DNA of 64,000 nucleotides from Nitrosopumilus sp. (GCA_965205215.1 OZ242041.1:1824001-1888000); one strand, 5' to 3'. Positions 5,763 to 44,572 are shown, counted from the first letter of the stretch. Translations and numbers: made by a program. Notes: a model not told the origin generated them from the letters alone.

Positions 5763-5949
5763 CCCTCACGGGCATAGCTTGGAATGGGACTGCCAAGTTG
5801 ACGTGCGATGGCGTATTCGTAATCACACACGAACTTGACACCCTCACAAGTATATTATATCGTTGTAAAAAAGAACTCAAGCTCGGAGTGACCCACTAGA
5901 ACATCAACGACGTCGAGGAGACGTTTTTGCGATTGGCGCCGCTCTGCAT

Positions 5950-8318: not shown

Positions 8319-8327
8319 GGCCGGTCA

Positions 8328-8687
8328 CTACGCCTCTACGTATATCTGTCCATCGTCCACTCTAACATTGTAGACCTGCACGGGCTTTTCGGCGGGGGGG
8401 TTCAGGGGACAGCCGGACTCCAAGTCAAACACAGAAAGATGCAGCGGGCAGCGCACCCCGTCGGGCCCCAGAAAACCCGTCGACAGGTCCGCGTCTTCGT
8501 GAGTGCACATCAGGTCAGTTGCGCGTATCGCCCCGCCCTGGTTTGCGACCAGCATCCTGCGGCCGCCCTCATGATCCTCAAATCTTTGCAGCGTCCCGTC
8601 TGCAACGTCGGAAAGCTGGCACACGCGGAGCCATCTTTTGCTGCCGGCGCCGCTGTCGCCGGCGCCGTCACCTGCGGCAGCGTCCAT
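8328..8687 (-). CDS. Rieske-type [2Fe-2S] ferredoxin
   Basis: CTH...CPLH Rieske ligands; between sufD and sufS. Start codon approximate. Confidence 0.9.
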   Translation of the reverse strand: MDAAAGDGAGDSGAGSKRWLRVCQLSDVADGTLQRFEDHEGGRRMLVANQGGAIRATDLMCTHEDADLSTGFLGPDGVRCPLHLSVFDLESGCPLNPPAEKPVQVYNVRVDDGQIYVEA

Positions 8688-8709
8688 GGCGCCGTTCCCG
8701 TCGCCGCCA

Positions 8710-10149: not shown

Positions 10150-10186
10150 TGCATATCAACTCACAGGCAACGGGCAGGCACGACGG

Positions 10187-11587
10187 TCACCCCACGGAGT
10201 CGTCCATCTCGAGCTTTATCAGCCGGTTCAGCTCCACCGCATACTCCATCGGAAGCTCCTTTGTGAACGGCTCCATGAACCCGTTTACTATCAGCGACAG
10301 GGCCTCCTCCTCCGTAAAGCCCCTGCTCATCAGGTAGAATATCTGGTCGTCGCCGATCTTGCCCACGGTGGCCTCGTGCGTAATGGTGGCGTCCTCCTGG
10401 TTTATCTCCATGTACGGGTACGTGTCGGTCTTCGACGTGTCATCAAGAAGCAGCGCGTCGCACCTTACGGTCGACTTTACGTTGGTCGCGCCCTTTGCCA
10501 CGTTGAGCAGCCCGCGGTACGTGGAGCGTCCGTCATGCCTGCTCACCGACTTGGAGGTGATCTTCGACTTGGTGTTTGGCGCCAGGTGCACCATCTTGGC
10601 GCCCGTGTCCTGGTGCTGTCCCTTGCCTGCAAAGGCGATTGACAGAGTCTCGCCGTAGGCGCGCTGTCCCATCAGGTACACGCCGGGGTACTTCATCGTG
10701 AGGCGGCTTCCTATGTTGCCGTCAATCCATTCCACCGTGGCCCCTTCGTACGCGTAGGCCCGTTTTGTCACCAGGTTGTACACGTCGTTGCTCCAGTTCT
10801 GGATTGTGGTATACCGCAGGTGGGCGTCCTTGTGGGCCACCAGTTCCACCACCGCAGAGTGCAGCGACTCGGACGAGTATACGGGGGCCGTGCACCCCTC
10901 TATGTAGTGGACGTCTGCGCCCTCGTCTACGATGATCAGGGTGCGCTCAAACTGCCCGATATTCTCCGCGTTTATCCTAAAGTATGCCTGGAGTGGCATG
11001 TCGACCTTTACGCCCGGCGGCACGTAGATGAACGAGCCGCCGCTCCAGACTGCGCTGTTGAGTGCCGCAAACTTGTTGTCCTCGGGCGGTATGACCTTGC
11101 CAAAGTACTTGCGGAATATCTCGGGCTGCTCCTTTAGCGCAGAGTCCGTGTCAAGGAACATCACGCCCTGCTTTTGCAGGTCCTCCCTGAGGTTGTGGTA
11201 TACGACCTCGGACTCGTACTGGGCCCCGACGCCGGCCAGGAACTTCTTCTCGGCCTCTGGAATCCCGAGCTTGTCAAATGTGTTCTTCACGTCGGCCGGA
11301 ACGTCGTCCCAGCTCTTCTCGGTCTTTTCTGACGCCTTTGCATAATAGTAGATGTTCTGAAAGTCTATCGTACTCAGGTCGCCGCCCCACGTGGGCATGG
11401 GTTTCTTCATAAACGTCTCAAACGATCTCAGTCTAAAGTCGAGCATCCACTGCGGCTCGTCCTTCATCTTGCTGATTCCAATTACCGTCTCCTTTGTGAG
11501 CCCCTTTTTGCTCAGGTGGACGTACATTTCAGTAGAGTCCTTAAAGTCATACTTTGAATAATCCATCTCAAGGTTCTCAGTTGCCAT
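10187..11587 (-). CDS. sufB: Fe-S assembly protein SufB
   Basis: [34 protein letters not shown] and ELPMEYA motifs. Start at ATG 11587 fits the TATA box at 11609-11616. Confidence 0.97.
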
Positions 11588-11608
11588 CACACACGACATA
11601 ACGTCGTT

Positions 11609-11657
11609 ATTATAAATAGATGTGGGAAAATAGGCAGAGCTAAATAGGCGCAGCTAA
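11609..11657 (-). promoter_or_regulatory. sufB promoter: TATA box plus two tandem 14-bp ATAG-N6-CTAA boxes (DtxR/IdeR-like)
   Basis: Minus-strand TTTATAAT at 11616-11609. Plus strand reads ATAGGCAGAGCTAA (11630-11643) then ATAGGCGCAGCTAA (11644-11657). Confidence 0.6.
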
Positions 11658-11671
11658 AGGAAACAAGAGGG

Positions 11672-12499
11672 TCAGAACAGGCCCGCAAACGAGAGCAGCG
11701 CGACGCAGCCCATTATGATTGCAAACCACCAAAAGCTGACCCTGCCCGCTATACCCACAAGTACGCGCATGGACAGGTACCCGAACGCGAACGAGAGCGC
11801 AAGCCCCACCAGCAGTTCGGCGGGTTCGGCATCAGGGAGGCCGTACACGAGCAGGAGTCCCGCCTGGGCCGCCAGTACGGCGGGAATGCCCATCAGGAAG
11901 GAGAGGCGCAAGGCCTCGGGCGCCGAGTATCCGCGCAGCAGGAGCGCAGAGACCGTGACGCCGGACCGGGACAGCCCGGGCAGGGCGGAGAACGCCTGAA
12001 CCACCCCAAGAAGTACGGTGTCGCGCAAGTTGAGCGACGCGGCGGACTTTAGGCCGGCTGCATATGCGGCAGGGCCCTGCCGCCTCTTGGTGGCATACAG
12101 GATTATCCCCGTCGCTATCAGCGCGATCCCGACCAGTCCGAGCAGAAATTCGCCGGACACGACGCCCGCATCCGCGGCAAGCGCAAACACGGAGAATCCG
12201 AGCGCCCCGCTCAGGAGCGTGGATACTATCAGGAACGTGATCATGCCGTCGGAGGGGTTGCCGTATCCGGGGCGGTAACCACCTGCGCTGCGGAGTATGC
12301 GCGCGATGTCCCGGCGCAGGTACAGGACGGCAGAGCCGGCCGTTCCAAGGTGCAGGAAAAACGACAGGTCCGCTGCGTCCTGGGGCGCGTACCCGAATAT
12401 ACCAGTCATTATAATGACGAGCTCGCCCGTGCTTGATATCGGGAGCCATTCAAGGACGCCCTGCAGCATGCCAAATATCGCCGACTCGGCAAGCGCCAT
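11672..12499 (-). CDS. uppP: Undecaprenyl-diphosphate phosphatase (BacA/UppP family)
   Basis: QGVLEWLPISSTG, HLGT and LPGLSRSG motifs; several transmembrane segments. Confidence 0.9.
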   Translation of the reverse strand: MALAESAIFGMLQGVLEWLPISSTGELVIIMTGIFGYAPQDAADLSFFLHLGTAGSAVLYLRRDIARILRSAGGYRPGYGNPSDGMITFLIVSTLLSGALGFSVFALAADAGVVSGEFLLGLVGIALIATGIILYATKRRQGPAAYAAGLKSAASLNLRDTVLLGVVQAFSALPGLSRSGVTVSALLLRGYSAPEALRLSFLMGIPAVLAAQAGLLLVYGLPDAEPAELLVGLALSFAFGYLSMRVLVGIAGRVSFWWFAIIMGCVALLSFAGLF

Positions 12500-12881
12500 G
12501 GACGTCAGGACATGCCGCGTCTATTAACTCTAGCAGGATGCAGGCAGAAGGGCGCGGGCCCGGCTTGTTTTGTGCGTCCGGCCAACCGCGGATTGCAGGG
12601 CGCGATATGTTGCACGCCTCCAAACCGTATCGGGATCCAAATCCGGCAATTCCGCCCGCACGCCGGTTCTTTCCCAGATTCCGGCATACGTACGAACCCA
12701 TGCCAGTCCGGATTTTGGCTTTGGCGGGCCGGGGTGTGACGTGCATACGCCTATGGGTGCATCCACCACCCACAGTTGCGTGTCAGAACGCGCGCAGGCG
12801 GCTGGCCTCCGAGAGTCCGGGCCCGGACGCGCTGCGCATGCCCCCAGGCCCTGCCGATGCCGTTTTGTGCCTGCAATATGA

Positions 12882-13292
12882 TCAGGGCGGGATGAGGCGG
12901 CCCATGTCGTTGAAGCCGCAGATGGAAACTGACGAGGCAATGTCGTCGATTGACGGGGAGTCCACGCTGTGGAACTTGACGGGTTTTTCGCCAAACGCAT
13001 CGTCATAGCAGTTCAGTTCCATGCGGTCACCCTCACTGATGTGTATCACAAGTGCCGCAGACTTGATTCCCCTCGTGTCGAAATAGCTTATTGTATCAAC
13101 GCCCCAAGAGCTGCTAAACGTCGCAGTCATACTTCCGGAATTATACGCCTCCCTAAAGGCCAGGACGTGCTCGTTTGAATCGTATCTTTGGTATACTTCG
13201 GGAATAACACTATGAACATACAGGTTGGCGAACACAAGATACACTACTATTCCCGCGGGTACGAGTAACGAAATTTTGACGTACTTGTTCAG
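12882..13292 (-). CDS. Hypothetical membrane-anchored protein (low GC), probable CTG start
   Basis: Track ORF 12882..13244 is open upstream to CTG at 13292, giving (M)NKYVKISLLVPAGIVVYLVFANLY, a basic n-region plus hydrophobic anchor. Confidence 0.6.
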   Translation of the reverse strand: MNKYVKISLLVPAGIVVYLVFANLYVHSVIPEVYQRYDSNEHVLAFREAYNSGSMTATFSSSWGVDTISYFDTRGIKSAALVIHISEGDRMELNCYDDAFGEKPVKFHSVDSPSIDDIASSVSICGFNDMGRLIPP

Positions 13293-13312
13293 GGAGAAAC
13301 TGGGACAGATCC

Positions 13313-13510
13313 TTATTTAACACATCTGATGCCAAAAAAGAATGTGATTCCGCTCAGCGCATACGAGAGGATCAGAAGCGCCAGAAGATCAGCTGGAGTG
13401 TTTTCATAGTAGCGATATACTTCCGCAGTAGAGGAGAGTCCGGAAAACAGCGATATTGCCCCTATTAGCAGGTAAACCAGTCCCAGGAACTTCTTTTTCG
13501 TGTCGTCCAT
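13313..13510 (-). CDS. Small two-TM hypothetical membrane protein (low GC)
   Basis: 65 aa with two hydrophobic helices; TATA-like TTTATAT about 25 nt upstream on the minus strand. Confidence 0.65.
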   Translation of the reverse strand: MDDTKKKFLGLVYLLIGAISLFSGLSSTAEVYRYYENTPADLLALLILSYALSGITFFFGIRCVK

Positions 13511-13836
13511 CCCATCCCGTTCCCGTATGCAGATATAAACAGCACCGACCGCGATGTCGGTGCCGCCGTAACTACGGCCGCCAGGGGATCGACAAACCTT
13601 GCCTTTTCAGATATCGGCGCCACCATTATCTCACGCTGTCGCCGGGGGAGTCCCATGGCGAACGGCGACGGGATTTTCATCCTTGTCCCCGCCCATGTAA
13701 AACGGCGCGTCATGGTCCCCGGACGCTTCAGGGACACACACCCCCAAGCATCCCCCGAACCTGCCCATATCCCATGCAGGGTCCGCCCTGCCGAACGATT
13801 TCACACGGGCACGAACGTCCGAATCATTTGTCGGCC

Positions 13837-14973
13837 TCAAGACGGTTCTGTCTTGGGACGCGTCGCGGAGGGCGCATCACCACTGTGCGCGCCCACAAGA
13901 TCCAGGTAGGTTTTGTGGCGGCGCTTTTGAATCGCGTCAAAGATTCCTGCGGCGCCGTCCCCAAGATTGGCATAGTTTGCAGTGACGTACTGCAGTGCAA
14001 TGTCGCAGTCGTGTATGGCGCCAGTCGATTCCTGGACCTGCCTTACGCTGTCCAAGACCCTCGACAGTGATGCATCATAGTCTTGGGCATCACCGACATT
14101 GCAGGTGTCACTGGCATGGGGGGCGACGACGACGACGCTGCAATACGTCCGGTACTGGGTCTCGTCTTCCAGCAGGTAGCGGAGCCTCTTTACCATCTTC
14201 CGCATGGCATGAAGCTCCTCAACCTTTGACTCGTCAGAGGTCACTGTTACAGAGATGCCACGCACGTCATCAAAGAGCGACCAGATCATGCGCCTGCGCT
14301 TGGACGCCATCTTGTGCCGGTCAATCTTGTCCACCGATCCAGACAGCGGCTTGAGCGCCGCTATTTTCCTGGCGCGAAAGAGCGAGTCCCCAAGGGCGCC
14401 CTCCCTGCCGCGGCAGAGTTTTACAACCGCCTCCGAATCGGCCGGAACGCCCAGCTTGATCAGCATGCCGGATATGACATCAGAGTCCCGCAGCGGGCCG
14501 GTCCTGCGGAACAGGTCCCTTGCAGCGGACACCAGCTTGCCGCAGCGCGCGGGCCTTTCTGACTTTGGCAGTGCGCCGTACGTGGACTCGAGCCGGCGTA
14601 TGGACGTGCGCAGGTCGTGCAGCTGCTCCTCGCCCGGACTGGACATGTATGCCTCAAGGCGCTTTGCAAAGAGATCGTAGCGCCTGCGCATTGCGTTGCG
14701 GTACGTCCTTGTGGTGCCAGCATCGTTGCCCGAGACGGGGTGCGGCCCGCCCTTTTTAGGCGGCTTTTTCCCGGAGCCCGCAGTATCCGCCACCGCGCCC
14801 GCAGCGTCAGGGACGGGTTCGCGCGCCGAGGCGGTCACGGAAGCGTCGGGGGCGGCGTCAGCGACAGTAGAGGTAGTGGCAGTGGCAGTATCGGCGTCGG
14901 CGGCGACAGCGGGGACGCCCTGCCCATGATCGTCATGTTCCCCGTGCGTGGTTTCGGGCCTTGTGTGAGCCAT
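13837..14973 (-). CDS. CHAD domain protein (polyphosphate-binding)
   Basis: LHDLRTSIRRLES, LRDSDV, LHAMRKMVKRLRYLLE and QESTGAIHD CHAD motifs; low-complexity N-terminus. Confidence 0.9.
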   Translation of the reverse strand: MAHTRPETTHGEHDDHGQGVPAVAADADTATATTSTVADAAPDASVTASAREPVPDAAGAVADTAGSGKKPPKKGGPHPVSGNDAGTTRTYRNAMRRRYDLFAKRLEAYMSSPGEEQLHDLRTSIRRLESTYGALPKSERPARCGKLVSAARDLFRRTGPLRDSDVISGMLIKLGVPADSEAVVKLCRGREGALGDSLFRARKIAALKPLSGSVDKIDRHKMASKRRRMIWSLFDDVRGISVTVTSDESKVEELHAMRKMVKRLRYLLEDETQYRTYCSVVVVAPHASDTCNVGDAQDYDASLSRVLDSVRQVQESTGAIHDCDIALQYVTANYANLGDGAAGIFDAIQKRRHKTYLDLVGAHSGDAPSATRPKTEPS

Positions 14974-33968: not shown

Positions 33969-35384
33969 CTAGAACCCCGCGGATATGGGGTTTGGAGGCT
34001 TTATCAGCTCCCGGAGCAGCATCGTTGCAAAAGAGCCCCGGGCAAGTGAGAACTCCACGGTCTTGGCGTCATCATGCCATGCATAACCAGAGCACTGGAG
34101 TACGGCATCCCGGAACCCGCCCTCGCCGCTTGCCTCCTGCATCGCGTTTAGGAAGAAGGCACGCGGCTTTACTCCCTCGTCCACGAGCACGTCTGACACG
34201 TATGGCGCAAACCGCGTCTTTGAATAGTACGAATAGCCGACGATTGGTATCGCCACCGCGTCGCTGCGCACCCGTACAAGGCCGCCATGCGCGTCGACCT
34301 CCCGGCCGTTTTCGCCCCCGGATCCCGCCGTCGCCGCCGCAGACGCGGTCCCGTCATACTTGTGAAGATCACCGTGCCTGTCAAAACAGACGTCGCCGGG
34401 TTTGGGATCCAAGAGGCTCTCGCCTGCGGCAATGGCCGCGCTCAGGGTGCGGTTGAATACATACGACTGGTATGCGCTTACATACAGCCTGCGCAGCAGG
34501 AGCGGAACAGCGCGGAGCGCGCGGAGTGGGTCGCCGTGCCTGGCCAGTTCCTCCAGCACGGTTTTTTCTGTGTCCATGCCCGGCGGCAGCCGCCGCGCCG
34601 ACTGCGCGTACAACGCCGGGTCTGCAAGGTTCTCCCGTACCTCCCTGCGCTCCCGCGTGTCGTACGGCGACGCATACTCCAGTATCAGGCGCACGGCCTC
34701 GTCATAGTCACCCATTGTAAGGGCCCTGCCGACCATGTGCGTTACGGGGCGCCCCGAGCCAAACCTCTGATATCCGTAAAAGTTTGGGACCGAGTCTGCA
34801 TATGTCACAAAACCGGACGGATCGGGCGCGGTTGCCGCTTCAGTGGCATCCCCCCCGTTGCTGCCGCTGCCGGGATCTCTCCAGCCCCCGGATATCCGTA
34901 TGCGGAACCTGTTTCCAAGCATCTGTTTTTTTGTAAGTGGCCTCTTTGCATATCCGGCAAACGCCAGGCCGAACCTCGAGGCGCTGATGTCGCGGAGCCT
35001 CCTCCCCGCGGCCCCAGTCGAGCAGACATACTGCGTGGTGGCGGCCGATGCGTCCTTGAGTCCCAGTGGCTTTAGTTTGGCGCCCGTCATCTTGCGTATG
35101 GCGCCGAGCGCGTGCGCAGTGTCGATGCCCCTCTTGCGGAGCACGTACACTGCGTACCCTGTACCTTTCGCAGACGCGTCTGCGTCCGCGTTGCCGTTGT
35201 TGCTGCCGTTGCCGCCGGCGCCGTGATCGCATATCATCCTGAGGGCGGCCGGCGACAATATCTCCGACACTACAAAATCGTCCGGCGCCGCCCGTATGCC
35301 ATACCCGCGGCCGAGCCCGGGAAACGGCGTGGCATACACGCCTATTCCAATCGTGCGATCAATCTCGGGAACTGTGCCGCTCAC
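33969..35384 (-). CDS. truD: tRNA pseudouridine(13) synthase TruD
   Basis: DFVVSE, GLKD (catalytic Asp), GNRFRI, PNFYGYQRFG, AYQSYVFN and GSFATMLLRE motifs. Confidence 0.95.
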   Translation of the reverse strand: MSGTVPEIDRTIGIGVYATPFPGLGRGYGIRAAPDDFVVSEILSPAALRMICDHGAGGNGSNNGNADADASAKGTGYAVYVLRKRGIDTAHALGAIRKMTGAKLKPLGLKDASAATTQYVCSTGAAGRRLRDISASRFGLAFAGYAKRPLTKKQMLGNRFRIRISGGWRDPGSGSNGGDATEAATAPDPSGFVTYADSVPNFYGYQRFGSGRPVTHMVGRALTMGDYDEAVRLILEYASPYDTRERREVRENLADPALYAQSARRLPPGMDTEKTVLEELARHGDPLRALRAVPLLLRRLYVSAYQSYVFNRTLSAAIAAGESLLDPKPGDVCFDRHGDLHKYDGTASAAATAGSGGENGREVDAHGGLVRVRSDAVAIPIVGYSYYSKTRFAPYVSDVLVDEGVKPRAFFLNAMQEASGEGGFRDAVLQCSGYAWHDDAKTVEFSLARGSFATMLLRELIKPPNPISAGF

Positions 35385-37111
35385 TGTACAATCACTGTGA
35401 CGAACCTGCCCACCGATATGTCGGGCGCCTGGGCGCCCAAGAGAACCTTGTATATCCCGCTTGGCGCGTCACCGGTGACGGCGATCATGACCGGAATGTC
35501 AGACAGCTTCGCGGCGTGTGCCTGGCCGTCGCCCCCGTAGCCGATGATGTCGTCTTGCGCCCCCGCATCTGACAGCATGGTGACAAGAACATGCGGGCTG
35601 CCGGACACCGCAAACGGCTCGATCTGCGCGGACGGGTCGCCACTGCTTGTGGCGGGGCCCGTAACGTCAAACGTCACACCTTCGATTCCGCCCAGGGCGA
35701 CAGAGACGTATGGCGTCGACGGCTCCACGTCAAAGGGCACCGGAATCGAGGTGTCCACCACCCCTATCTTGTTCTCGGCCCACTCCGTAAACCATATCCT
35801 GTCCCCGTGCACGTCAAAGTCAAAGACCTGTGCAACGCCGCACCTCTCAGGTGCCGCGCCCTCTGTCGCGTCCTGGCTTGCCCCGGACTGTGGGATTATG
35901 ACGTCCCCAACGTCACCACCATCGCCGGGCGCCCCCACGCAGTCGGCCCAGTGCGGGTTCTTTGACGGCACGTGGTACTCTACAATCTTCTGCTGTACTG
36001 GATCCAAGACCGAGATGTTGTTTGACGTCTGCGAGTTGAACACCAGGCGCCCCGCATCATCCGCGGCCATCCAGTACGGGCGCGACAGGGGGGACTTTAC
36101 CACCCCGGTCTTGTTTCCGTACGTCGACTCTGTCGGCGACGCGGTCACATACTGCGTGAAGAGCCCCGTTGCAGGATCAAACTCAAACACGGACGACGAC
36201 GTGGTGTCCGCGAGCCATACGCCACCGTCGCCGGATATCGCAATCCCGTTGGGAGTCTGGACGGTCGGAGGAAGCTCGATTAAATCCACAAAGTCGATTG
36301 GCGGCAGGTACGCCTGCCCCGTCGTCGCAGCGACGTCCACGTACCTGCCGTGATCAAACCTGACCAGATAGCCGTCTCCCCCCGGTCTCCCGTCCCACGC
36401 GGTATACCAGATATACCCGCCCGCGTCCGGGACAAAGCCGGCCGTAACCGTCCCGTCTATCGGTGACGGCGCCACCAAGAACTTGTCAGGCTGGCTGGGA
36501 TCCAAGAACACGAGCATGTTCCCGTAAAAGTCGTTCACCACAATCTGGGAGCCGTCCACGATCAGCCGCTGTGGCAGCGGATCCGACACCACTGCGGGCA
36601 CGGGGAGCCGGCCGTACTGCCCGGTTATCGGATGGAACACCCACATCGAGTCTGACGCGTCGTCAGTAAACCAGACCATCCCGTCGGGCGCATGGTCCAT
36701 TCCCCACATCATAGAGGTGGCGCCCTCAGGCCAGGAGGGGTTAGGATACTCTGTGAACGTCTCAGTCTCCAGGTCAAACGTCGCCACCCTGCCCGTGTTG
36801 GACTCGGCAAACCACGGGTTCCCGTCATAGTCCACGGCAATGGCAAGCGGGTTGGTGCACTCTGTCGGGATTGCAAACTCACGTATGTAGGCAGTCGACA
36901 GCGGCGGCAGCCCCGTGCCGCAGTACACAACCCGATCGGCCTCGTCATAGTTTGCAGAATAGTCACGGTCAAGGTCCGCGCCCGACGGCGCAAGGGGATC
37001 CATGCCACGCTCGGTCGGTTCCAGTCCCGGTATGGCAATTACCACAAGCGACGTGATCAGTATCCCTCCAAGAAACACAACCGCAAAGAGGCCCTTGGCG
37101 CGCTGCTTCAT
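35381..37111 (-). CDS. Membrane-anchored Vgb-lyase-like beta-propeller protein
   Basis: Repeated P..I..D.DG..WF blades after an N-terminal TM segment. Confidence 0.8.
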   Translation of the reverse strand: MKQRAKGLFAVVFLGGILITSLVVIAIPGLEPTERGMDPLAPSGADLDRDYSANYDEADRVVYCGTGLPPLSTAYIREFAIPTECTNPLAIAVDYDGNPWFAESNTGRVATFDLETETFTEYPNPSWPEGATSMMWGMDHAPDGMVWFTDDASDSMWVFHPITGQYGRLPVPAVVSDPLPQRLIVDGSQIVVNDFYGNMLVFLDPSQPDKFLVAPSPIDGTVTAGFVPDAGGYIWYTAWDGRPGGDGYLVRFDHGRYVDVAATTGQAYLPPIDFVDLIELPPTVQTPNGIAISGDGGVWLADTTSSSVFEFDPATGLFTQYVTASPTESTYGNKTGVVKSPLSRPYWMAADDAGRLVFNSQTSNNISVLDPVQQKIVEYHVPSKNPHWADCVGAPGDGGDVGDVIIPQSGASQDATEGAAPERCGVAQVFDFDVHGDRIWFTEWAENKIGVVDTSIPVPFDVEPSTPYVSVALGGIEGVTFDVTGPATSSGDPSAQIEPFAVSGSPHVLVTMLSDAGAQDDIIGYGGDGQAHAAKLSDIPVMIAVTGDAPSGIYKVLLGAQAPDISVGRFVTVIVQ

Positions 37112-37258: not shown

Positions 37259-37618
37259 TCAGAGCAGCTTGAGATCCCCGGTTATTCTGTCGACGGCACT
37301 CTCAGGCGCGGGACCCACCGACACGCAGGTGACGGTACCGGGATCAAGCTGGGTGTGGCCGGCGTCCGATACCTCGGCGTACGGCAGTCCGGCGCGTACT
37401 GCATCCATCTTCAGGCCGCGGAGACTCTCAAGTCCAGGGGCCTTTAACACAATCTTCTTCTGCCCGCCGTCCCACCAGTCCGCGTACCAGTCAGGGTGCG
37501 TCAGCCTTACGCGCTCGGCGCCCATCACAAAGGCGTGCCCAGCCTGGGCGGCCATCTTGCCGCGGCCCATCTTGAGATCCGTCCTCATTACAACCACCTG
37601 CTTTATCTCGCCGCCCAT
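37259..37618 (-). CDS. pth2: Peptidyl-tRNA hydrolase Pth2
   Basis: KQVVVMRTDLKMGRGKMAAQAGHA, DAGHTQ and ITGDLKLL motifs. Confidence 0.96.
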   Translation of the reverse strand: MGGEIKQVVVMRTDLKMGRGKMAAQAGHAFVMGAERVRLTHPDWYADWWDGGQKKIVLKAPGLESLRGLKMDAVRAGLPYAEVSDAGHTQLDPGTVTCVSVGPAPESAVDRITGDLKLL

Positions 37619-38113
37619 GACGTGACACATAAGCGGAGCGTCAAAAACATTTGCAATCGCAGCAGGCGGGATCGAACGCCGGACACGCAAGTCCCTCAGG
37701 AGGCGTCGGGGCCGTCAGGCGCTGCTTGACGCCCTGCACAGGCGTCCAGACAGCCACGTATGCCCATACGGACAGGGAACGGCACCCAACACGTCGGGAC
37801 GTAAGTGCGTCGGGAGTCATCCCACAAGGCGTTCAAAGGAGTATGTATGACCGCGAGTGTTCGAATCCTGTCAAGATGCCGAAGTGACGCTTGCAGGAGC
37901 CCTTGCAGACTACCACTACCACAAAAACAACCAGCAGATGCACTCCGCTGCCGGGTATATGACGCCGACCGAGTCTGCCGCTCATCTGGATCTGAGAGAT
38001 AAAAGTGGTCCGCCGCATGGTTAGTCGTGGCAAAGACGGCCCCATTCTATAGGATCCGCCCCAAGAGCATTGCGGCACAAATCTTTTTTTGCACATTACG
38101 GGAATAAAACACA

Positions 38114-40627
38114 ATGAAGATCGCCATCGTATACAACAAAAAAAAGATTGACGACCAGGACGTGATCAACGTGTTTGGCGCGACCACGCTGGAGCACTAC
38201 TCGCACCGCACGGTGGAGCTGGTGGCCACCGCGCTGGAGCGCGGGGGGCATTCTGTAAAGATCATCGAGGGAGGAATGAGCTTTATCGAGGAGATGAAGG
38301 AGTTCATGCCGCGCGTGGTTTCGGGCAGCAGGCCCGGGATGGTCTTCAACATGGCGTACGGCATCCAGGGGCGCAACCGCTACACCCACGTTCCTGCCAT
38401 GCTCGAGATGCTCGGGATACCGTATGTGGGATCGGGACCCGAGGCCCACGCGGTGGTCCAGGACAAGGGAATGACTAAGATCGTCTTGCAGAGAAACGGC
38501 ATACCGACCCCCGGGTTCTGGATGTTTGGCTCCCCCGACGACGTGTTTGACGATCTGGTGTTTCCCGTGATCGTAAAGCCCAACATGGAGTCTACGTCCA
38601 TGGGGATGGACGTGGTAGACGACTGGGACAGCCTGCGCAGGTCGGTGCGAACCCAGATGGAAAAATACTCGCAGGAGATACTGGTGGAGCAGTTCATACC
38701 CGGCAGGGAGTTTGCAGTTGGGCTGCTTGGAAACGGGGCCAGCGTCGAGGTGCTGCCGATCGTGGAGATGGACCTTGGCGGCGATCCGAACCGCATACAG
38801 ACCATAACCGACAAGAAAGAGACGCCCGTTGAAAAGATCTGCCCCGCAGCTCTCGACGAGGAACAGTGCGCGCTCATGCGCAGGATTTGCCTTACGGCCT
38901 TTGGAAAGCTGGGTCTAAACGACTTTACCCGGGTAGACCTGCGCATGGCCGAAGACGGCAAGATCTACGTTTTGGAACTAAACTCGATGGCAAGCCTTGG
39001 CAAGACCGGTTCCTATTACACGGCTGCCAAGGCGGCGGGTTACTCGTATGACTCGCTGATCAACAAGATCCTCGACGTGGCGGCGATACGATACTTTGGG
39101 GAGTCTTCGCTCCAAGGCCGCTACAGCTACCACCACCACCAACATGACGACGACGGGGGCGGTGGCGCCGCGATCACGGGCATGGCAGCAGATGCGGCAC
39201 GCGCCGCGTCCGGGGGCGCAAGGCAGAGGGTGCAGGCGCGATCAAAGCCCGCGCCATCACCACACTCCGCGCCCCCGCTGCGCTCCATACTGCGGAGCTA
39301 TCTCAGGAGCCACCACACCACCAGTGAGAAACTGCTGCGACACCTAGTGATGACCAACTCCAGCGTCTACAACGTCGAGGAGGTCAACGAGATTGGCAGC
39401 ATCATGACCAAGAGGCTGGAGCACCTGGGGTTCGTGCCGCTCGTATACAAGGAGTTCGACGTGGGGGACATGATATACTATACTAACTATACGGGCGACT
39501 CTGCAGGCATTGACGTGCAGGCAGCAGCAGCGGCCGCAGCGGCCGCATCCCCCCCATCCGCTGCAGGCGGCTCGGGCGGCGCGGGCAGGACCGCCCGCAA
39601 GAACGACATCCTGATGCTGAGCCACCTCGACACGTGGTACTCCAACCGGGACTTTGCAGCGTTCCACAAGGCCGGCAGCAAGATGTACGGCTCGGGCATA
39701 GCCGAGTCCAAGGGGGGGCTTGTCACTATGCTGTCGGCGCTGCAGGCCCTGCGGTTTGCGCGCAGGCTCAAAAAGGCGCGGTGCGGCATACTGCTTGTAA
39801 CCGACGACTCGATAGGGGGGCGGTTCAGCAAGAAGCTGATCCGCGACATCGCGGCAGGCTACGACTACATAGTGGATCTCAAGTGGGGCATGCCAAACGG
39901 CGGCATCGCGACGTCGTGCTCTGGGATCACAAAGTATCACATCGACATGATGCACATAAGGCAGCGCGACGACACCATAAAGGACGTCATCCCGGACATG
40001 TGCAAAAAGGTCGTTGACTGGAAGAGGATGTCCGATTCGCACAACAGGGCAAGGGTCGTGATATCGGACATCTCGGCGCGCACCTCGTTTGGCAACTCGC
40101 CGGACTATGGCAGCCTCACGCTTACGACCAGGTACGTGACGCGGCGGCAGGGCGACGAGTTCGATTCCGAACTTCACAAGATCGCCAAAAAGAGGACAAA
40201 GTCCAAGCTTGACACGCACATCGTACAGCAGGCGAGGAGGAACCCCGTGGAAAAGACCGCAAAGACGCAGGGGTTCTTTGACATGGTCAGCAGGCTTGCC
40301 GACGAGTCCGACGTCGGGGTTTTGGAAGATCACAGGTATGCCTCATCCAGCCTCGGGGACATTGCGGACGCGGACAAGTTCGTGCTGGGCTCCATGGGCC
40401 CCGTGGGGGTCGACTACAGGACCCCGAATGAGCACATCATAAGCGACAGCATGATCGAGAGGGCCCTCCTGCTCGCGCTCGTCATCGACAAGCTTGCGTC
40501 TGAGAGGAACGAAGGCGGCGGCAAGAAGGGCGGAACGGCGGCGGCAAAAGAAGGGGCGCGGCGGCGGGCAGTGCATCGGATGCCGGCTGCAGACAACGCG
40601 GCCGCAGGTGGTGGGAGGCCGCAGTAG
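38114..40627 (+). CDS. Fusion of a D-Ala-D-Ala-ligase-like ATP-grasp domain and an M20/M25/M40 peptidase-like domain
   Basis: N-half: GIPYVGS, QDK, FPVIVKP..ESTSMG, EQFIPGREF, RVDLR, LELN. C-half: LSHLDT, YGSGIAESKGG, MGPVG..YRTPNE. Confidence 0.88.
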   Translation: MKIAIVYNKKKIDDQDVINVFGATTLEHYSHRTVELVATALERGGHSVKIIEGGMSFIEEMKEFMPRVVSGSRPGMVFNMAYGIQGRNRYTHVPAMLEMLGIPYVGSGPEAHAVVQDKGMTKIVLQRNGIPTPGFWMFGSPDDVFDDLVFPVIVKPNMESTSMGMDVVDDWDSLRRSVRTQMEKYSQEILVEQFIPGREFAVGLLGNGASVEVLPIVEMDLGGDPNRIQTITDKKETPVEKICPAALDEEQCALMRRICLTAFGKLGLNDFTRVDLRMAEDGKIYVLELNSMASLGKTGSYYTAAKAAGYSYDSLINKILDVAAIRYFGESSLQGRYSYHHHQHDDDGGGGAAITGMAADAARAASGGARQRVQARSKPAPSPHSAPPLRSILRSYLRSHHTTSEKLLRHLVMTNSSVYNVEEVNEIGSIMTKRLEHLGFVPLVYKEFDVGDMIYYTNYTGDSAGIDVQAAAAAAAAASPPSAAGGSGGAGRTARKNDILMLSHLDTWYSNRDFAAFHKAGSKMYGSGIAESKGGLVTMLSALQALRFARRLKKARCGILLVTDDSIGGRFSKKLIRDIAAGYDYIVDLKWGMPNGGIATSCSGITKYHIDMMHIRQRDDTIKDVIPDMCKKVVDWKRMSDSHNRARVVISDISARTSFGNSPDYGSLTLTTRYVTRRQGDEFDSELHKIAKKRTKSKLDTHIVQQARRNPVEKTAKTQGFFDMVSRLADESDVGVLEDHRYASSSLGDIADADKFVLGSMGPVGVDYRTPNEHIISDSMIERALLLALVIDKLASERNEGGGKKGGTAAAKEGARRRAVHRMPAADNAAAGGGRPQ

Positions 40628-42331
40628 TTGGACATAGGCAGGGTCGAATCGTCGTTCTCCCCGTCCACATACGGCAGGAAGGCCGCATATTCCGCGAAGG
40701 GGGGCATGGTGGCGTCCGCGTTTCCAGACGCGACGCAGGCGGGAGTCGAGATGCTCAAAAAGGGCGGAAACGCAGTCGATGCGGCGTGCGCAACGGCCTT
40801 TGCGCTCGGCGTGTGCGAGCCGCAGGCATCCGGGATCGGGGGCCAGTCCATGTGCATAATGCACATGGACAGGAAGAGCGTGGCAATAGACGGCTCGAGC
40901 AGGTCCCCGTCGCGCGCTCACTCGTCGGCATACCATACAAAGAGGAGGCGCCTACTGGGCTACAAGGCGACCACGGTTCCAAGCACCGTGGCCGTGCTTG
41001 GGATAATGCACGAGCGTTACGGCGCCCTCGAGTGGCAAAAGGTGCTGGCGCCCGCCATACGTATAGCCAGGAGGGGGTACCGCATCACCAAGCTGCAGAG
41101 CCGCATCCAGGCAAAGGAGCTGGAAAACTTTCTGAGCATAAAGTCAAGGTCGGGTGCAAGGTACTTTCTAAAGGACGGACAGGCGCCGTACGAGGCGGGC
41201 GACAGGTTCGTGCAGGACGACCTGGCGCAGACGCTGAGGGCCATATCGGACAGCGGCTACCAGAGCTTTTACCGCGGAAGCATAGCAAAGCAGATAGACC
41301 TGGACATGCAGAGAAACGGGGGCCTCATACGGGAGGAGGACCTGACGTACATTCCGGAGCCCATAGAGAGGGCTCCGATCAGAAGACAGTACCGGGACGT
41401 CTCGGTGGTGACCATGCCCCCTCCCGCCGCGGGGCTGACGCTCCTGCTGACGCTGATGATGCTCAACCACCTGCCGTCCAGGTTCCTGCGCAGCAAGAAG
41501 CCGAGCTCCTACCACTTTGTCGCCGAGACGTTTAGAAAGGCGTTCTGGCACAGGGTGCTGCGCCCGTTCAACCCCCACACGTACAGCCAGATGCACGACA
41601 TGCACTACCACCACCTGAAGCGCTCGTTTGCAAGGCAGATGGCCGACTCCATACACAACTCGATGGACGACACGCTGCCGATCATGGACCATGCGTTTGG
41701 CGGGGACGAGGACGAGGGCGGGGAGACCACGCACCTGTCCGTAATGGACGACGAGGGGAACGCGGTAGGGATAACCCAGTCAATCGAGCTTCCATACGGC
41801 TCAAAGGCGGCGGCAGACGGGCTGGGGTTCCTGTACAACAACTACATGTCCGCCTTCGACTTTGAAAATACAATGAACCCGTTTTACATCAGGCCGAACG
41901 AGGTGCCGTGGACGTCGGTCTCGCCGGCGCTCATATTTCACGACAAGCGGCTGTGGATGGTGGTGGGAAGCCCGGGAAGCCAGAGGATCTTCTCGACGGT
42001 CGCCCAGTTTCTCATGGGGGTGGTCGACGGGAGCCTTCCGATTGACGCCTCGATGTACCTGCCGCGGCTCCACTGCACGATAGGGGGGGAGATCGGCATA
42101 GAGGACGGCGCGTTTGAGAAGCCCGTGATGAGGTATCTGGAGGGGCTGGGATACAAGGTCGTGGTCAGGGACCGGTTCTCGTTTTACCACGGGGCCGTCC
42201 ACGCCGTCATGAAGATGCAGACCCGGGACGGATTCCAGGGGGTGGCGGAGGTGAGGCGGGACGGCACCGCCGCATCCGCGGGTGGCGGCGTCGACAAAAG
42301 CGGCAACAGGCGCAGCGGTGATCGCCCCTGA
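40628..42331 (+). CDS. ggt: Gamma-glutamyltransferase family Ntn-hydrolase
   Basis: GGNAVDAA, EPQASGIGG, ETTHLSV (nucleophile Thr), GSPGS and PRLH. TTG start directly abuts the upstream TAG. Confidence 0.93.
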   Translation: MDIGRVESSFSPSTYGRKAAYSAKGGMVASAFPDATQAGVEMLKKGGNAVDAACATAFALGVCEPQASGIGGQSMCIMHMDRKSVAIDGSSRSPSRAHSSAYHTKRRRLLGYKATTVPSTVAVLGIMHERYGALEWQKVLAPAIRIARRGYRITKLQSRIQAKELENFLSIKSRSGARYFLKDGQAPYEAGDRFVQDDLAQTLRAISDSGYQSFYRGSIAKQIDLDMQRNGGLIREEDLTYIPEPIERAPIRRQYRDVSVVTMPPPAAGLTLLLTLMMLNHLPSRFLRSKKPSSYHFVAETFRKAFWHRVLRPFNPHTYSQMHDMHYHHLKRSFARQMADSIHNSMDDTLPIMDHAFGGDEDEGGETTHLSVMDDEGNAVGITQSIELPYGSKAAADGLGFLYNNYMSAFDFENTMNPFYIRPNEVPWTSVSPALIFHDKRLWMVVGSPGSQRIFSTVAQFLMGVVDGSLPIDASMYLPRLHCTIGGEIGIEDGAFEKPVMRYLEGLGYKVVVRDRFSFYHGAVHAVMKMQTRDGFQGVAEVRRDGTAASAGGGVDKSGNRRSGDRP

Positions 42332-43170
42332 AGGCGCTGCCCGTTCTGATCTCAATCCCCCACGGGGGAACCGAGGCGCCGCGGGAGCTTGACGGGCGCC
42401 TCTGCATTACCGAGTCCGCGCAGTTCGACGACTCGGATCCGTTCACGGCCGAGATCTATGACATCGGGGAGTCGGCCCTCCACGTCGTAAGGGCCGAGGT
42501 CGCAAGGGCGTACGTCGACCTGAACAGGTCAAGGACGCAGCTGCCGCCAAGTGATCCAGACGGACTGGTCAAGAGCGTCACGTGCTACAACGAGCCCATC
42601 TACATACGCGGGATGGAACCGGGCCCGCAACTCGTAGAGCAGCTCATCAGAAGGTACTATGATCCGTACTACGACGCGATAGAACGAGCGTGCACGGACC
42701 CGCAGGGCGGGCTGCGACTGTGCCTCGACTGCCATTCCATGGCTCCCACCACGCCCCCGGTCAGCAATAATAGCAGCGGCGGCGGCACGGGCCAGGACGG
42801 CGCGCGCGATGGCCGCGGCTCCGCACGCGGGAACGGCGCGGCCCGCCCGCTCTTCTGCCTCTCAAACCGCGACGGCGAGACGTGCCCCGACGATCAGCTG
42901 GAAACGCTTGCATGCTGCATATCAGAGTCCTTTGGGATGCCCAGGGACCGCATACTCCTTAACCGCCCGTTCCGCGGCGGGCACATCACCGAATGGTTCG
43001 GGACAATGTATGGTGCAGTAATCCCGTGGGTGCAGGTCGAGATGAACCGCATGCTGTACCTAGACGAGCGGTGGTTTGACCGCGACTCTGCGAAAATGAC
43101 AGACGGGGCGCGGCTTGCCGAGCTAAACCGCATGTTCCGCGACTCGCTTGTCCGGTTTTTTGCCGCATGA
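42328..43170 (+). CDS. N-formylglutamate amidohydrolase family protein (CTG start)
   Basis: Frame open from CTG 42328: LPVLISIPHGG, DDSDPFT, RAYVDLNR, YYDPYY, DCHSM, NRPFRGGHIT, VQVEMNR.LY. Confidence 0.9.
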   Translation: MKALPVLISIPHGGTEAPRELDGRLCITESAQFDDSDPFTAEIYDIGESALHVVRAEVARAYVDLNRSRTQLPPSDPDGLVKSVTCYNEPIYIRGMEPGPQLVEQLIRRYYDPYYDAIERACTDPQGGLRLCLDCHSMAPTTPPVSNNSSGGGTGQDGARDGRGSARGNGAARPLFCLSNRDGETCPDDQLETLACCISESFGMPRDRILLNRPFRGGHITEWFGTMYGAVIPWVQVEMNRMLYLDERWFDRDSAKMTDGARLAELNRMFRDSLVRFFAA

Positions 43171-43360
43171 CGCCCCGGGTGCAGGGGTCTGGACCGGCCG
43201 GGCGCGTGGTGGCCCGTGGCATATTATACGCGCGCGCCTTGTAAAGCCCATCTTTGTGTATGACTCCCGCAGTCCCCACCCTCCTTCCTGCTCAACCCAG
43301 GTATGTAACTCCCGCCGAACCGGTTCTAGCAGTTAAATAATTGGGTGCGGGCTCACGTCC

Positions 43361-44572
43361 ATGCGCGACGCCTCATACGACGTGGTGGTTGCAGGAGGCA
43401 GCATATCAGGACTGCTCTGCGCAAGGGAGATTGCGGCAGGCGGGCACTCCGTGCTGGTGGTGGAGGAAGACTATGAGATAGGCACGCCGGAGCACTGCGG
43501 CGGGCTGGTAAGCAGCAGAGGCCTCGAGGAGCTAGGGATGATACCGTTTGGAGGCACGCTAATGCACCGCGTCGAGAGGGCCCGCATCACCTCGCCGGAC
43601 GGCACCCACATTACAATCGACGCCAAGAGGCAGAACGTACTGTGCGTAAGCAGGAGGGAGCTTGACAAGCAGGCAGCGCACCAGGCCCAGAGGGAGGGGG
43701 CCGACATAATGATCAGGACGAGCCTACACGAGAGGACGCGGGAGGGGGTCAGGATCAGCGGGGTTGGAGGCGCCGCCGATGCCAATATCATAAACTGCAG
43801 GATAATGGTGGACGCGCGGGGGGCCGCGGCGCTTGCCCAGAGGGACAGGGACGGAATAATCCCGTCTGCGCAGTATGAGGTGTATGCCGACTGGATAGAG
43901 GACGGGAGGGTGGAGGTGCTGCCGGATCGGCTAAAGTATCCCGGGTTCTTTGCGTGGGTCATACCGTCCGGGCGCGGAAGGGGACGCGTCGGCGCAGCGG
44001 GAAGGGGGATCAACGCGGCCGCAGCGCTCGAATCGTTTCTTGCGGACAGGGGCAGGGGCGACGGCCGCGGGTGCTGCGTAATCAGGAAGATATTTGCCCC
44101 GATCTGGATAAAGGGCCCGATCAAGAGATTCCACGACGCCGGCAGCGGCGTCATAACAGTCGGAGACGCGGCCGGGCAGGCAAAGCCGACCACTGCGGGC
44201 GGCATATTCTCAAGCGGCATGGGCGGCATCCTTGCAGGGCGCGCCATATCCAGGCATCTGGACGGGGCGGATGGCGGCACGCAGGACATGGACGGGCTCG
44301 GCGACTCGTACCGCGCAGCATGGTACAAGCGGTTTGGCGGCGAGTTTGAGAGGCAGTCGATTGCAAGAAGGATACTTGAGAGGGCAGACAACGGAGCCAT
44401 AAACGACGTGATAAGGCGGGTCTCACCAGAGGCGCTCAGAGAGATATCGGCGGAGGACGACTTTGACTTTCACGTCTCAGGCATCATAAAGCTGCTTGGC
44501 GCTGCGGGAACAGCAAGGGCGGCCGGAAGCATGCTGGGCGCGGAGCTCAGAAGGCTGATCCCGGGCCAGTAG
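43361..44572 (+). CDS. Geranylgeranyl reductase-family FAD oxidoreductase
   Basis: YDVVVAGGSISG, PEHCGG, FAWVIP and VGDAAGQAKPTTAGGI motifs. Confidence 0.9.
   Translation: MRDASYDVVVAGGSISGLLCAREIAAGGHSVLVVEEDYEIGTPEHCGGLVSSRGLEELGMIPFGGTLMHRVERARITSPDGTHITIDAKRQNVLCVSRRELDKQAAHQAQREGADIMIRTSLHERTREGVRISGVGGAADANIINCRIMVDARGAAALAQRDRDGIIPSAQYEVYADWIEDGRVEVLPDRLKYPGFFAWVIPSGRGRGRVGAAGRGINAAAALESFLADRGRGDGRGCCVIRKIFAPIWIKGPIKRFHDAGSGVITVGDAAGQAKPTTAGGIFSSGMGGILAGRAISRHLDGADGGTQDMDGLGDSYRAAWYKRFGGEFERQSIARRILERADNGAINDVIRRVSPEALREISAEDDFDFHVSGIIKLLGAAGTARAAGSMLGAELRRLIPGQ

Follow-up and report, generated by a model that had tools for sequence, protein, structure and literature searches.

We analyzed a 64,000-nucleotide (nt) stretch of DNA, hereafter called the window, from Nitrosopumilus sp. 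(GCA_965205215.1 OZ242041.1:1824001-1888000), in which three genes on the plus strand follow one another without a spacer between positions 38114 and 43170. The first gene (38114-40627), which starts with ATG and encodes 837 amino acids (aa), is a fusion of a Ddl-family ATP-grasp amide ligase domain (38114-39115, residues 1-334) and an M20-like domain without a di-zinc site (39269-40513, residues ~386-800). The second gene (40628-42331, 567 aa) encodes a gamma-glutamyltransferase (GGT)-family Ntn hydrolase that is predicted to be cytoplasmic, and the third (42328-43170) encodes an amidohydrolase of the FGase family (N-formylglutamate amidohydrolase-like). The TAG stop codon of the fusion gene (40625-40627) directly abuts the TTG start codon of the GGT gene (40628-40630), and a CTG at the start position of the FGase gene overlaps the GGT stop codon. 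The original prediction, made from the sequence of the window, had described three genes without a spacer; the TAG/TTG junction at 40627/40628 was confirmed, and Pfam gives the domains as they had been named. The genome that carries the operon, that of a sponge-associated ammonia-oxidizing archaeon, is a single contig of 2.10 Mb, is 95% complete, and has proteins that match Nitrosopumilaceae. We describe the operon as a member of a widespread, horizontally exchanged enzyme module and tentatively propose a role in the metabolism of a small glutamate-type amide solute.

Residues 143-320 of the fusion protein match PF07478 (3.7e-30), and the closest solved sequences to the ATP-grasp domain are Ddl and VanA (8evx, 1iov/2dln and 1e4e; 1e-27 to 1e-25), with an L-amino-acid ligase-type relative (3vot) at 9e-11. 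Scores against both curated Ddl models fall far below their cut-offs (TIGR01205, 140.4 bits versus 245.65; NF002378, 149.8 versus 243). In an alignment to 1iov, the counterparts of DdlB Lys144, Arg255, Asp257, Glu270 and Asn272 are retained, and the catalytic-core residues K155, R273, D275, E288 and N290 of the fusion are at least 95% conserved in 79 relatives. The window copy carries the consensus residue at all 94 columns that reach this level of conservation among the same relatives. In contrast, Ser150, Tyr216, Ser281 and Leu282 of DdlB, which we take to be the D-Ala-binding residues, are not retained and align, in a comparison where the placement of the omega loop is uncertain, to Thr (Val in most relatives), a variable residue, Gly and Ser. 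Because the core residues are kept, the D-Ala-site residues are lost and the scores are far below the Ddl cut-offs, we predict that the domain is an active-looking ligase but not a genuine D-Ala-D-Ala ligase. It shares its ATP/Mg2+ and acyl-phosphate residues with Ddl/VanA and the L-amino-acid ligases; it differs from Ddl and VanA in carrying the fused M20-like domain and in sitting with GGT and FGase genes or, elsewhere, with an amidotransferase gene. This archaeal lineage is not known to have peptidoglycan.

The C-terminal half of the fusion matches PF01546 at residues 502-791 (3.2e-8; 34.2 bits versus a gathering cut-off of 24.6) and over ~300 residues is closest to the carboxypeptidase G2/glutamate carboxypeptidase family (1cg2, 2e-8; NF004788, 1.9e-21). 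It shares family similarity with carboxypeptidase G2 and peptidase M20 but lacks their metal ligands and general base. In the window copy H112 of carboxypeptidase G2 is kept, and D141 is replaced by E, E175 by D, E176 by S, E200 by K and H385 by R; the same loss of ligands appears in an alignment to the genuine M20 gene that adjoins the fusion in one locus (L057). Across 80 fusions (the window copy and the 79 of 86 cluster members that are 690-870 aa long), the canonical residue is present at the first His in 47, at the bridging Asp in 1 (Glu in 62), at the general-base Glu in 16, at the liganding Glu in none, at the second acidic ligand in none (Lys in 44) and at the last His in 3 (Arg in 41). 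Because the metal ligands are gone across these fusions, the domain is probably non-catalytic and not a peptidase. The original prediction had counted two or three amide hydrolases in the operon; since the M20-like domain lacks metal ligands, only two are credible. Four other residues of the domain, D506, D564, R709 and E773, are at least 95% conserved among the 79 relatives, and the domain perhaps binds an anionic glutamate-like ligand, which would make it a case of a metallopeptidase domain reused as a non-catalytic part of a ligase. Separately, Ala/Gly/His-rich low-complexity inserts and a C-terminal tail (39122-39289, 39515-39601 and 40514-40624) flank and interrupt the M20-like domain and are found in none of 16 other aligned fusions. 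A further low-complexity insert lies in the FGase gene at ~42742-42849, and the inserts in both genes look like lineage-specific expansions in a GC-rich genome.

The second gene product matches PF01019 (1.2e-114), scores above the TIGR00066 cut-off (361 bits versus 357.85) and is similar over its full length to bacterial gamma-glutamyltranspeptidases (7e-69). Its nucleophile, Thr367 (codon 41726-41728), is invariant in all 52 GGTs surveyed, namely the window protein and the 51 of 58 cluster members that are 500-640 aa long, and the Ser/Thr pair of the carboxylate site is retained. The canonical gamma-glutamyl pocket is not kept. In E. coli numbering, the R114 column holds Ser in 50 of the 52 proteins, with an Arg two residues on in 51; N411 is replaced by Glu in 51, Q430 by Tyr in 50 and D433 by Ala in 37. 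The last three departures fall on residues that hold the free alpha-amino group. The subfamily also has a signature of its own, with DGSSRxPS for DxRExAP, YNNYMSAF for LNNQMDDF and GSPGS for GSPGG. The N-terminus is conserved from residue 1 on in relatives, and no signal peptide was found in the window GGT, which has no N-terminal hydrophobic stretch. Only one of the 52 GGTs has a signal peptide, and this is a second paralog in a Nitrospinales genome. We therefore expect the product of the second gene to be cytoplasmic. It has the Thr nucleophile in common with bacterial gamma-glutamyltranspeptidases (E. coli 2e0w/2dbu; Bacillus 4y23) but differs from them in its altered signature, in the lack of a signal peptide and in that an FGase-family gene always comes after it.

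The third gene product scores 142.7 bits against PF05013 (2.5e-41; cut-off 28.9). Its score against the HutG equivalog model TIGR02017 is 75.7 bits, well short of the cut-off of 278.75, with only profile positions 10-154 covered, and no solved relative was found by sequence. Of 37 alignment columns in which at least 95% of 39 relatives agree, the window protein matches 36; the single departure, PYH to PYY, is common to its closest relative (L079). At 282 aa it is ~25-30 aa longer than its relatives (251-259 aa). The reading frame is open from 42322 to 43170, the first in-frame ATG, GTG or TTG is at 42613, and the conserved N-terminal motif LPVLISIPHGG lies 5' of that position. Among the 42 FGase open reading frames (ORFs) listed, the start codon is mostly ATG, TTG or GTG, lies 3-5 codons before the motif and mostly overlaps the GGT stop codon as ATGA or TTGA. 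The CTG at 42328 aligns exactly with this start, the closest relative having TTGA where the window has CTGA. Because the conserved motif precedes 42613 and CTG occupies the start position of the relatives, the CTGA overlap at 42328-42331 put forward in the original prediction is real, with the qualification that CTG is a non-canonical start codon. It is no assembly error, because long contigs from three runs in three studies cover the site and keep the C; their differences from the window (4, 10 and 8) all lie elsewhere. Translation of the gene probably relies on re-initiation or on weak initiation at a near-cognate codon.

Strain differences bear on whether the operon is maintained. Among the 34 differences listed within the genes (leaving aside two at 41237 and 41262 that come from short minor contigs, and those outside the genes), at least 19 in the fusion gene are synonymous versus 5 non-synonymous, compared to 1 versus 0 in the GGT gene. 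With the lack of a signal peptide, the ratio in the fusion gene suggests that the operon is intracellular and under selection. An RNA library (X20) contains four contigs, ~95-97% alike, on the fusion gene and the GGT/FGase junction; because DNA carry-over is possible, these contigs are no proof of transcription.

The three genes form one conserved unit, beyond what chance would produce, as they occur together and in a constant order in many phyla. Of 60 other Nitrosopumilaceae genomes sampled (61 with this one), 13 have a strong full-length match to the fusion protein. PF01019 is present in 12 of these 13 genomes and in none of the 47 others, and PF05013 in 11 of the 13 and again in none of the 47. 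The gaps fall on one genome that is 72% complete (G009) and one in which the GGT gene is cut by a contig end (G046). By coordinates, the order throughout the family genomes is fusion, GGT, FGase. A cross-phylum scan limited to one genome per species found 599 pattern matches, 585 of them relatives; the best 80 loci, from at least 12 phyla, were kept and, as simple ORF calling failed in some GC-rich loci, tallied by tblastn. All three genes are present in 43 of the 80 loci; 40 of the 43 have the order fusion-GGT-FGase on one strand, two (Alkalicoccus) have GGT-fusion-FGase, and one has mixed strands. Carriers are found in Nitrososphaerota, an ANME-2c archaeon, Binatia, Gemmatimonadota, Nitrospinota, Pseudomonadota, Acidobacteriota, Chloroflexota, Actinomycetota, KSB1, Bacteroidota, Thermodesulfobacteriota, Bacillota and Planctomycetota. 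Most of the remaining loci are cut or decayed copies (7), end less than 4 kb from the fusion (8) or have another partner (13). A lack of co-conservation elsewhere, which the original prediction had named as a reason to abandon the idea of a single system, is thus contradicted by the 43 full loci and by the family genomes. None of the three operon proteins matched any family in the PADLOC anti-phage defense models. Products of decay were also seen: in a Coriobacteriaceae metagenome-assembled genome (MAG), only GGT (112 bits) and FGase (82 bits) fragments are left after the fusion gene (L058 12185-13134), and one family genome has a second, split copy of the ATP-grasp half (G041:C1:1228321-1229309).

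In the 13 loci with another partner, a gene for a 190-aa class-I glutamine amidotransferase abuts the fusion gene, and the GGT and FGase genes are then missing; no locus has both. These loci come from Bacteroidota, Ignavibacteriota, Desulfobulbaceae, Hyphomicrobiales, Fusobacteriota, Clostridia and Thiotrichales. The Cys-His-Glu triad of the amidotransferase is intact in all 10 of the proteins aligned (of 13, with two near-duplicates and one cut copy excluded). On a FastTree phylogeny of the 80 fusions there are at least five switches between the GGT and amidotransferase contexts, so the two partner sets look interchangeable. GGT and class-I amidotransferases both act via a gamma-glutamyl-enzyme intermediate, and the module offers a case in which GGT plus FGase appears to be exchanged for a glutamine amidotransferase. 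The amidotransferase partner is 55-65% identical across distant phyla (L069, L068, L074, L076, L077, L088, L101, L102, L115 and L119), and identity at this level between such distant hosts suggests recent horizontal spread of the amidotransferase version of the module.

Genes for ion transport recur around the module. In the family genomes, genes for a long CorA (546 aa), an Ion_trans channel and CNNM/CorC lie between the fusion and GGT genes or adjoin the operon. The long CorA is found in 10 of the 13 fusion genomes versus 3 of the 47 others and lies within 10 kb of the operon in 7, and true ectC, which encodes ectoine synthase, is found in 6 of the 13 versus 1 of the 47. In the cross-phylum set, 28 of the 80 loci, from several phyla, have at least one ion gene (CorA in 10, MscS in 12 by tblastn plus 2 by Pfam, MgtE in 6, CNNM in 3, Ion_trans in 4 and a Na/H antiporter in 2); these ion-gene and ectoine counts have no matched background, and kin among them are not independent. 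The operon-linked CorA (L031 4299-5939 and orthologs) carries ~250 additional N-terminal residues that match no Pfam family and occurs mostly in fusion-bearing genomes. In one locus, an Ion_trans channel remnant lies between the fusion and GGT genes (L050 13849-14046). In Draconibacterium (L068/L072, ~5900-14460), seven genes on the same strand encode, in order, CorA, a GNAT-CN_hydrolase protein, the class-I amidotransferase, MscS, the fusion, a DUF389 membrane protein and a second MscS, with an arginine-decarboxylase-like gene upstream of the cluster.

The function that we favor for the operon, at a little below an even chance, is the synthesis and turnover of a small intracellular amide solute of the glutamate or glutamine type, either dipeptide-like or amidated, for osmotic or cation balance. 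Glutamate would be common to all the partners, judging from the nearness of the M20-like domain to glutamate carboxypeptidases, the FGase-family enzyme and the GGT. In the proposed scheme, the Ddl-like ATP-grasp domain would activate a carboxylate as an acyl-phosphate and join it to an amine. The zinc-less M20-like domain, in which D506, D564, R709 and E773 are kept, would probably bind the glutamate-type substrate or product or build the oligomer. The cytoplasmic GGT would make or break a gamma-glutamyl-type amide through a threonine acyl-enzyme, and the FGase-family enzyme would release glutamate from an N-acyl-glutamate-type product. We favor an amide solute because all the parts point to glutamate-type amides, the proteins are predicted to be cytoplasmic, and the neighbors are cation channels and mechanosensitive valves. 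Further reasons are the existence of known solutes derived from glutamate and glutamine and the link, in the Rim and Rlo systems, of ATP-grasp ligases to osmotic tolerance. The original prediction had raised a glutamyl-type small-molecule system with an osmolyte as one of its options, and such a system fits best, the osmolyte option being strengthened by the ion-channel and transporter neighbors and the co-occurrence with ectoine genes; another of its options, the release of substrates from host compounds, was not supported, as discussed below.

Several observations weigh against this proposal. For a purely biosynthetic operon, two hydrolases beside one ligase would be an unusual combination, and in 9 of the 80 loci the fusion has neither partner type within 10 kb. 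This genome has no long CorA and no ectC, and the 64-kb window contains no CorA, MscS, Ion_trans, CNNM or MgtE gene. The ion-gene counts from other genomes are subject to the limits given above. Polyamine genes (arginine decarboxylase, agmatinase and deoxyhypusine-synthase-like) adjoin the fusion in several Bacteroidota loci and point elsewhere. In the FGase gene, which has CTG at its start position, the listed strain differences include at least 4 synonymous versus 5 non-synonymous, and the gene may be weakly expressed or under somewhat relaxed selection.

The module resembles several known systems. Synthesis of the glutamine-based osmolyte N-acetylglutaminylglutamine amide (NAGGN) by Ngg and AsnO uses an ATP-grasp dipeptide ligase and an amidotransferase, together with a peptidase-like gene; Ngg is a GNAT-ATP-grasp protein of another clade, and AsnO is a class-II amidotransferase. 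Loci of the Draconibacterium type are like this pathway in joining a GNAT fusion, an amidotransferase, the ATP-grasp fusion and MscS channels. The three window proteins differ from it in having no GNAT or amidotransferase domain by Pfam. A ligase fused to a hydrolase-type domain is also known from glutathionylspermidine synthetase/amidase, and in GshF a Ddl-like ATP-grasp domain builds a gamma-glutamyl peptide. The first gene of the operon shares this fused layout but has neither a CHAP amidase nor a GshA domain, and its fused domain appears inactive by sequence. Parts of PMC1224877 describe beta-glutamate, beta-glutamine, NAGGN and carbamoyl-glutamine amide as glutamate- or glutamine-derived solutes. 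In P. aeruginosa, according to sections of PMC11957051, the rlo operon, which encodes an ATP-grasp protein, a seven-transmembrane (7TM) protein and a polyglutamate protease, governs hypo-osmotic tolerance. The Pseudomonas Rim (RimK/RimB) and Rlo (RloABC) systems, as those sections present them, resemble the module in combining an ATP-grasp ligase with enzymes that cleave glutamate chains, in a 7TM partner and in the link to osmotic tolerance. However, RloC and RimK are RimK-type and the window ligase is Ddl-type, the window hydrolases are a GGT and an FGase rather than retropepsins, and there is no 7TM gene in the window. Our literature searches found no description of this gene set, in line with the original prediction, which knew of no characterized pathway that has it; the likeliest prior source, the paper of Iyer et al. 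2009 on amidoligases, was not covered by these searches.

One alternative to an amide solute made and degraded by ligase, GGT and FGase is a glutamine- (or gamma-glutamyl-donor-) dependent amidoligase complex, in which the ATP-grasp domain activates a carboxylate, the partner, either the amidotransferase or the GGT acting as a glutaminase, delivers ammonia or a gamma-glutamyl group, the M20-like domain is a docking platform, and the product is an amidated solute, for example a glutamine-type amide. The pairing of ATP-grasp with a class-I amidotransferase is the design of carbamoyl-phosphate synthetase. The 190-aa partner is most like the amidotransferase subunits of GMP synthase and anthranilate synthase, not PuuD-type hydrolases; its triad is invariant and its gene abuts or overlaps the fusion gene. 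We consider such a complex unlikely, since it leaves the FGase-family enzyme, the constant companion of the GGT, without a role, and since a GGT pocket that has lost its holders of the free alpha-amino group (Q430 to Tyr in 50 of 52, D433 to Ala in 37 of 52) is a poor fit to glutamine. A second possibility, which we rate as slightly more doubtful, is the reversible glutamylation of a protein or peptide in the style of RimK/RimB, Rlo or tubulin TTLL/CCP, with the ligase adding glutamate-type residues to a target, perhaps the tail of a channel or transporter, and the GGT and FGase removing them. That the neighbors and fusion partners of the ligase include the membrane proteins CorA, MscS and 7TM_transglut would fit such a system, as would the Rim and Rlo precedents, which, in the sections of PMC11957051 concerned, tie ATP-grasp ligases to polyglutamate cleavage and osmotic tolerance. 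Yet the ligase is Ddl-like, not RimK-like, and its solved relatives use small molecules, as do GGT and FGase, which are small-molecule hydrolases by family. Moreover, the archaeal loci show neither a conserved small ORF nor a target gene next to the operon, and no membrane partner is close by in this genome.

The polyamine genes could instead reflect conjugation, in which an amino acid (or gamma-glutamyl peptide) is linked to a polyamine by an amide bond at the expense of ATP and the conjugate is recycled by hydrolysis, as in glutathionylspermidine synthetase/amidase or the gamma-glutamyl-polyamine pathways, with polycations set against Mg2+. Arginine/ornithine decarboxylase, agmatinase, deoxyhypusine/homospermidine-synthase-like and carbamoylputrescine-amidase-like genes flank the fusion in L068, L072, L086, L094, L080 and L103, and three families of Mg2+ transporters recur (CorA, MgtE and CNNM/CorC). 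However, these neighbors are nearly all from Bacteroidota, where they may be lineage synteny; the archaeal loci have no such genes except a housekeeping deoxyhypusine synthase in L036, and the window has none, so that conjugation strikes us as improbable. We attach the same low probability to catabolic salvage, whereby the hydrolases obtain nitrogen by degrading gamma-glutamyl or N-acyl amino acids that are imported or come from a host, with the ligase playing a minor part. The two glutamate-releasing hydrolases, the presence of DNA of the organism in runs recorded as sponge metagenomes and the grouping of sponge-associated Dehalococcoidia with Ca. Poriferisodalis in one fusion clade agree with salvage. 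It is hard to reconcile with the lack of signal peptides, with the absence of a recurring peptide or amino-acid importer from the neighborhood clusters, with the fact that the ATP-consuming ligase is the most conserved gene, and with the frequency of the module in free-living nitrifiers and sediment bacteria. The release of substrates from host compounds is likewise not supported, as the GGTs lack signal peptides (one exception in 52, a paralog) and the operon is also present in non-symbiotic Nitrosopumilus, Nitrospina and sediment bacteria. Finally, the best database names taken alone would describe a D-Ala-D-Ala ligase, a glutathione-degrading GGT and HutG, unrelated housekeeping enzymes that are adjacent by chance. 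Strict co-occurrence, fixed order, low Ddl and HutG scores and the loss of the D-Ala-site residues contradict this explanation, which we regard as scarcely credible. A combination of Ddl, glutathione and hut functions is ruled out, because the 95%-complete genome has no urocanase and no match to PF04262 (GshA) or PF04107 (GCS2), and the scores are below the Ddl and HutG cut-offs; PF02955 gave only weak hits (44 and 34 bits), to ATP-grasp ORFs of ~300 aa elsewhere in the genome. The original prediction had noted that the window has no hut genes, which the missing urocanase bears out for the genome, and had allowed that the ligase might simply make D-Ala-D-Ala while the GGT acts on glutathione, a case that the Ddl scores and residues and the missing glutamate-cysteine ligase do not support.

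Within our preferred reading of the operon as a system for a glutamate-type amide solute, a more specific version is possible but doubtful: an unrecognized pathway for a new compatible solute or cation counter-ion made from glutamate or a beta-amino acid, with the dead M20-like domain as its ligand-binding part and either GGT plus FGase or the class-I amidotransferase as partner, coupled to channels of the CorA/MscS type. If true, this would supply a missing second osmolyte system beside ectoine in marine ammonia- and nitrite-oxidizers, possibly tied to their very large beta-glutamate pool. Marine ammonia-oxidizing archaea are among the most abundant microbes of the ocean, and for most of them there is no settled account of osmotic balance. 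In the relevant parts of a 2024 study (PMC11428151), few of these archaea carry ectoine genes and no alternative osmolyte is identified; in parts of a 2021 study (PMC8269262), beta-glutamate is given as 730 mM in N. maritimus and no pathway is named. The three-gene module is compact, conserved and horizontally shared, and it tracks with ion channels and ectoine genes; it is a concrete, cloneable lead to possible new solute chemistry among nitrifiers, symbionts of sponges and many sediment bacteria.

A link to beta-glutamate is only hinted at by KamA-family 2,3-aminomutase genes. These adjoin members of the ligase clade on plasmids of Bradyrhizobium and Mesorhizobium and in a genome of Ignavibacteriaceae, where the fusion gene is preceded by a true M20 gene and by a glutamate-2,3-aminomutase-like gene that scores 569 bits against a cut-off of 650. 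No glutamate 2,3-aminomutase scored above the cut-off in the 61 family genomes, compared to 4 of 48 fusion-bearing bacterial genomes, where none lies beside the fusion; the single adjacent copy (L057) is the one just below the cut-off. The rhizobial aminomutases score ~160-195 bits against every KamA-family model. A plasmid search found only stand-alone ATP-grasp relatives and no fusion. Such a relative, 41-45% identical, is present on rhizobial symbiosis plasmids, and other ATP-grasp relatives, 42-45% identical, are fused to 7TM_transglut (PF14402) or nucleoside-transporter-like domains. On the Bradyrhizobium barranii plasmid pBb323S2b (L136, 3282-8047), an operon encodes a KamA-family aminomutase, a GGT, a 7TM protein and the ATP-grasp protein; this GGT is 38% identical to the window GGT and has the same signature, and the rhizobial 7TM neighbor matches the RloB model weakly (45 bits versus a cut-off of 900). 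On a Mesorhizobium plasmid (L138, 5684-8041) the aminomutase gene adjoins the ATP-grasp gene. On an accessory plasmid of S. meliloti M270 (L139, 2108-13426), ectB, a second ATP-grasp gene, the Ddl-like ATP-grasp gene and an aspartate-semialdehyde dehydrogenase gene lie together, a hint that the product of this lineage contains diaminobutyrate.

The operon represents a difference of 5.7 kb, by insertion or deletion, in the interval from pth2 to a reductase gene. In three genomes of the same genus, none of the three operon genes is present, and pth2 (minus strand) and the reductase gene (plus strand) lie ~30 nt apart, with reductase orthologs 58% identical. The segment present here and absent from close relatives (37658-43320) consists of the upstream spacer, the three genes and ~150 nt downstream. 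In one sequencing run (X3), a single 746-nt contig joins 37657 to 43321, skipping 5,663 nt, at a depth of 4.3 compared to ~11 for the main contigs. Because this contig is only ~84-95% identical to the flanks, it probably derives from a co-occurring operon-free relative in the same sample. No repeat of 10 nt or more was found at the segment boundaries, and the GC content of the operon, overall and at third codon positions, matches that of the flanking genes; these results lend no support to recent transfer or to a mobile element. The original prediction had raised the question of a donor lineage. On the tree, the 26 Nitrosopumilaceae and Cenarchaeum fusions all fall into a single clade (support 100), which sits beside Binatia and Gemmatimonadales; the window fusion groups with that of a Cenarchaeum MAG and with L079. 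The module is thus an old one in the family, with many losses. Outside the family, its phylogeny indicates movement between co-habiting lineages: Nitrosomonas and Burkholderiales fall inside the Nitrospinaceae clade, ANME-2c groups with Acidobacteria, and Ca. Poriferisodalis groups with Dehalococcoidia, both sponge-associated. DNA of the operon-bearing organism is itself present in runs recorded as sponge metagenomes, among others.

The operon is flanked by pth2, which encodes peptidyl-tRNA hydrolase (minus strand, 37259-37630 or 37259-37618, with in-frame ATGs at 37630 and 37618; PF01981, 5.7e-39), and by a gene for a geranylgeranyl-reductase-family flavoprotein (plus strand, 43361-44572), which scores 144.9 bits against TIGR02032, below the cut-off of 158.8. 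The original prediction had placed the operon between these two genes after ~490 nt of unassigned DNA, and this placement is correct: the upstream spacer (plus strand, 37631-38113) measures 483-495 nt depending on the pth2 start, likely contains the promoter and has no Rfam match. Comparison of the spacer with related loci and neighboring genes gave no conserved ORF and no common DNA element except a T-run. In the window this is a run of seven T at 38084-38090, 24-30 nt 5' of the ATG of the fusion gene, and related archaeal loci have similar T-runs ~25-33 nt ahead of the start codon; the run is likely a promoter element. On the far side of pth2, a minus-strand gene (35381-37111) encodes an NHL/SGL beta-propeller protein of 576 aa that matches the Vgb-lyase family (PF24684, 2.8e-16), and this gene is kept beside pth2 in the same-genus genomes.

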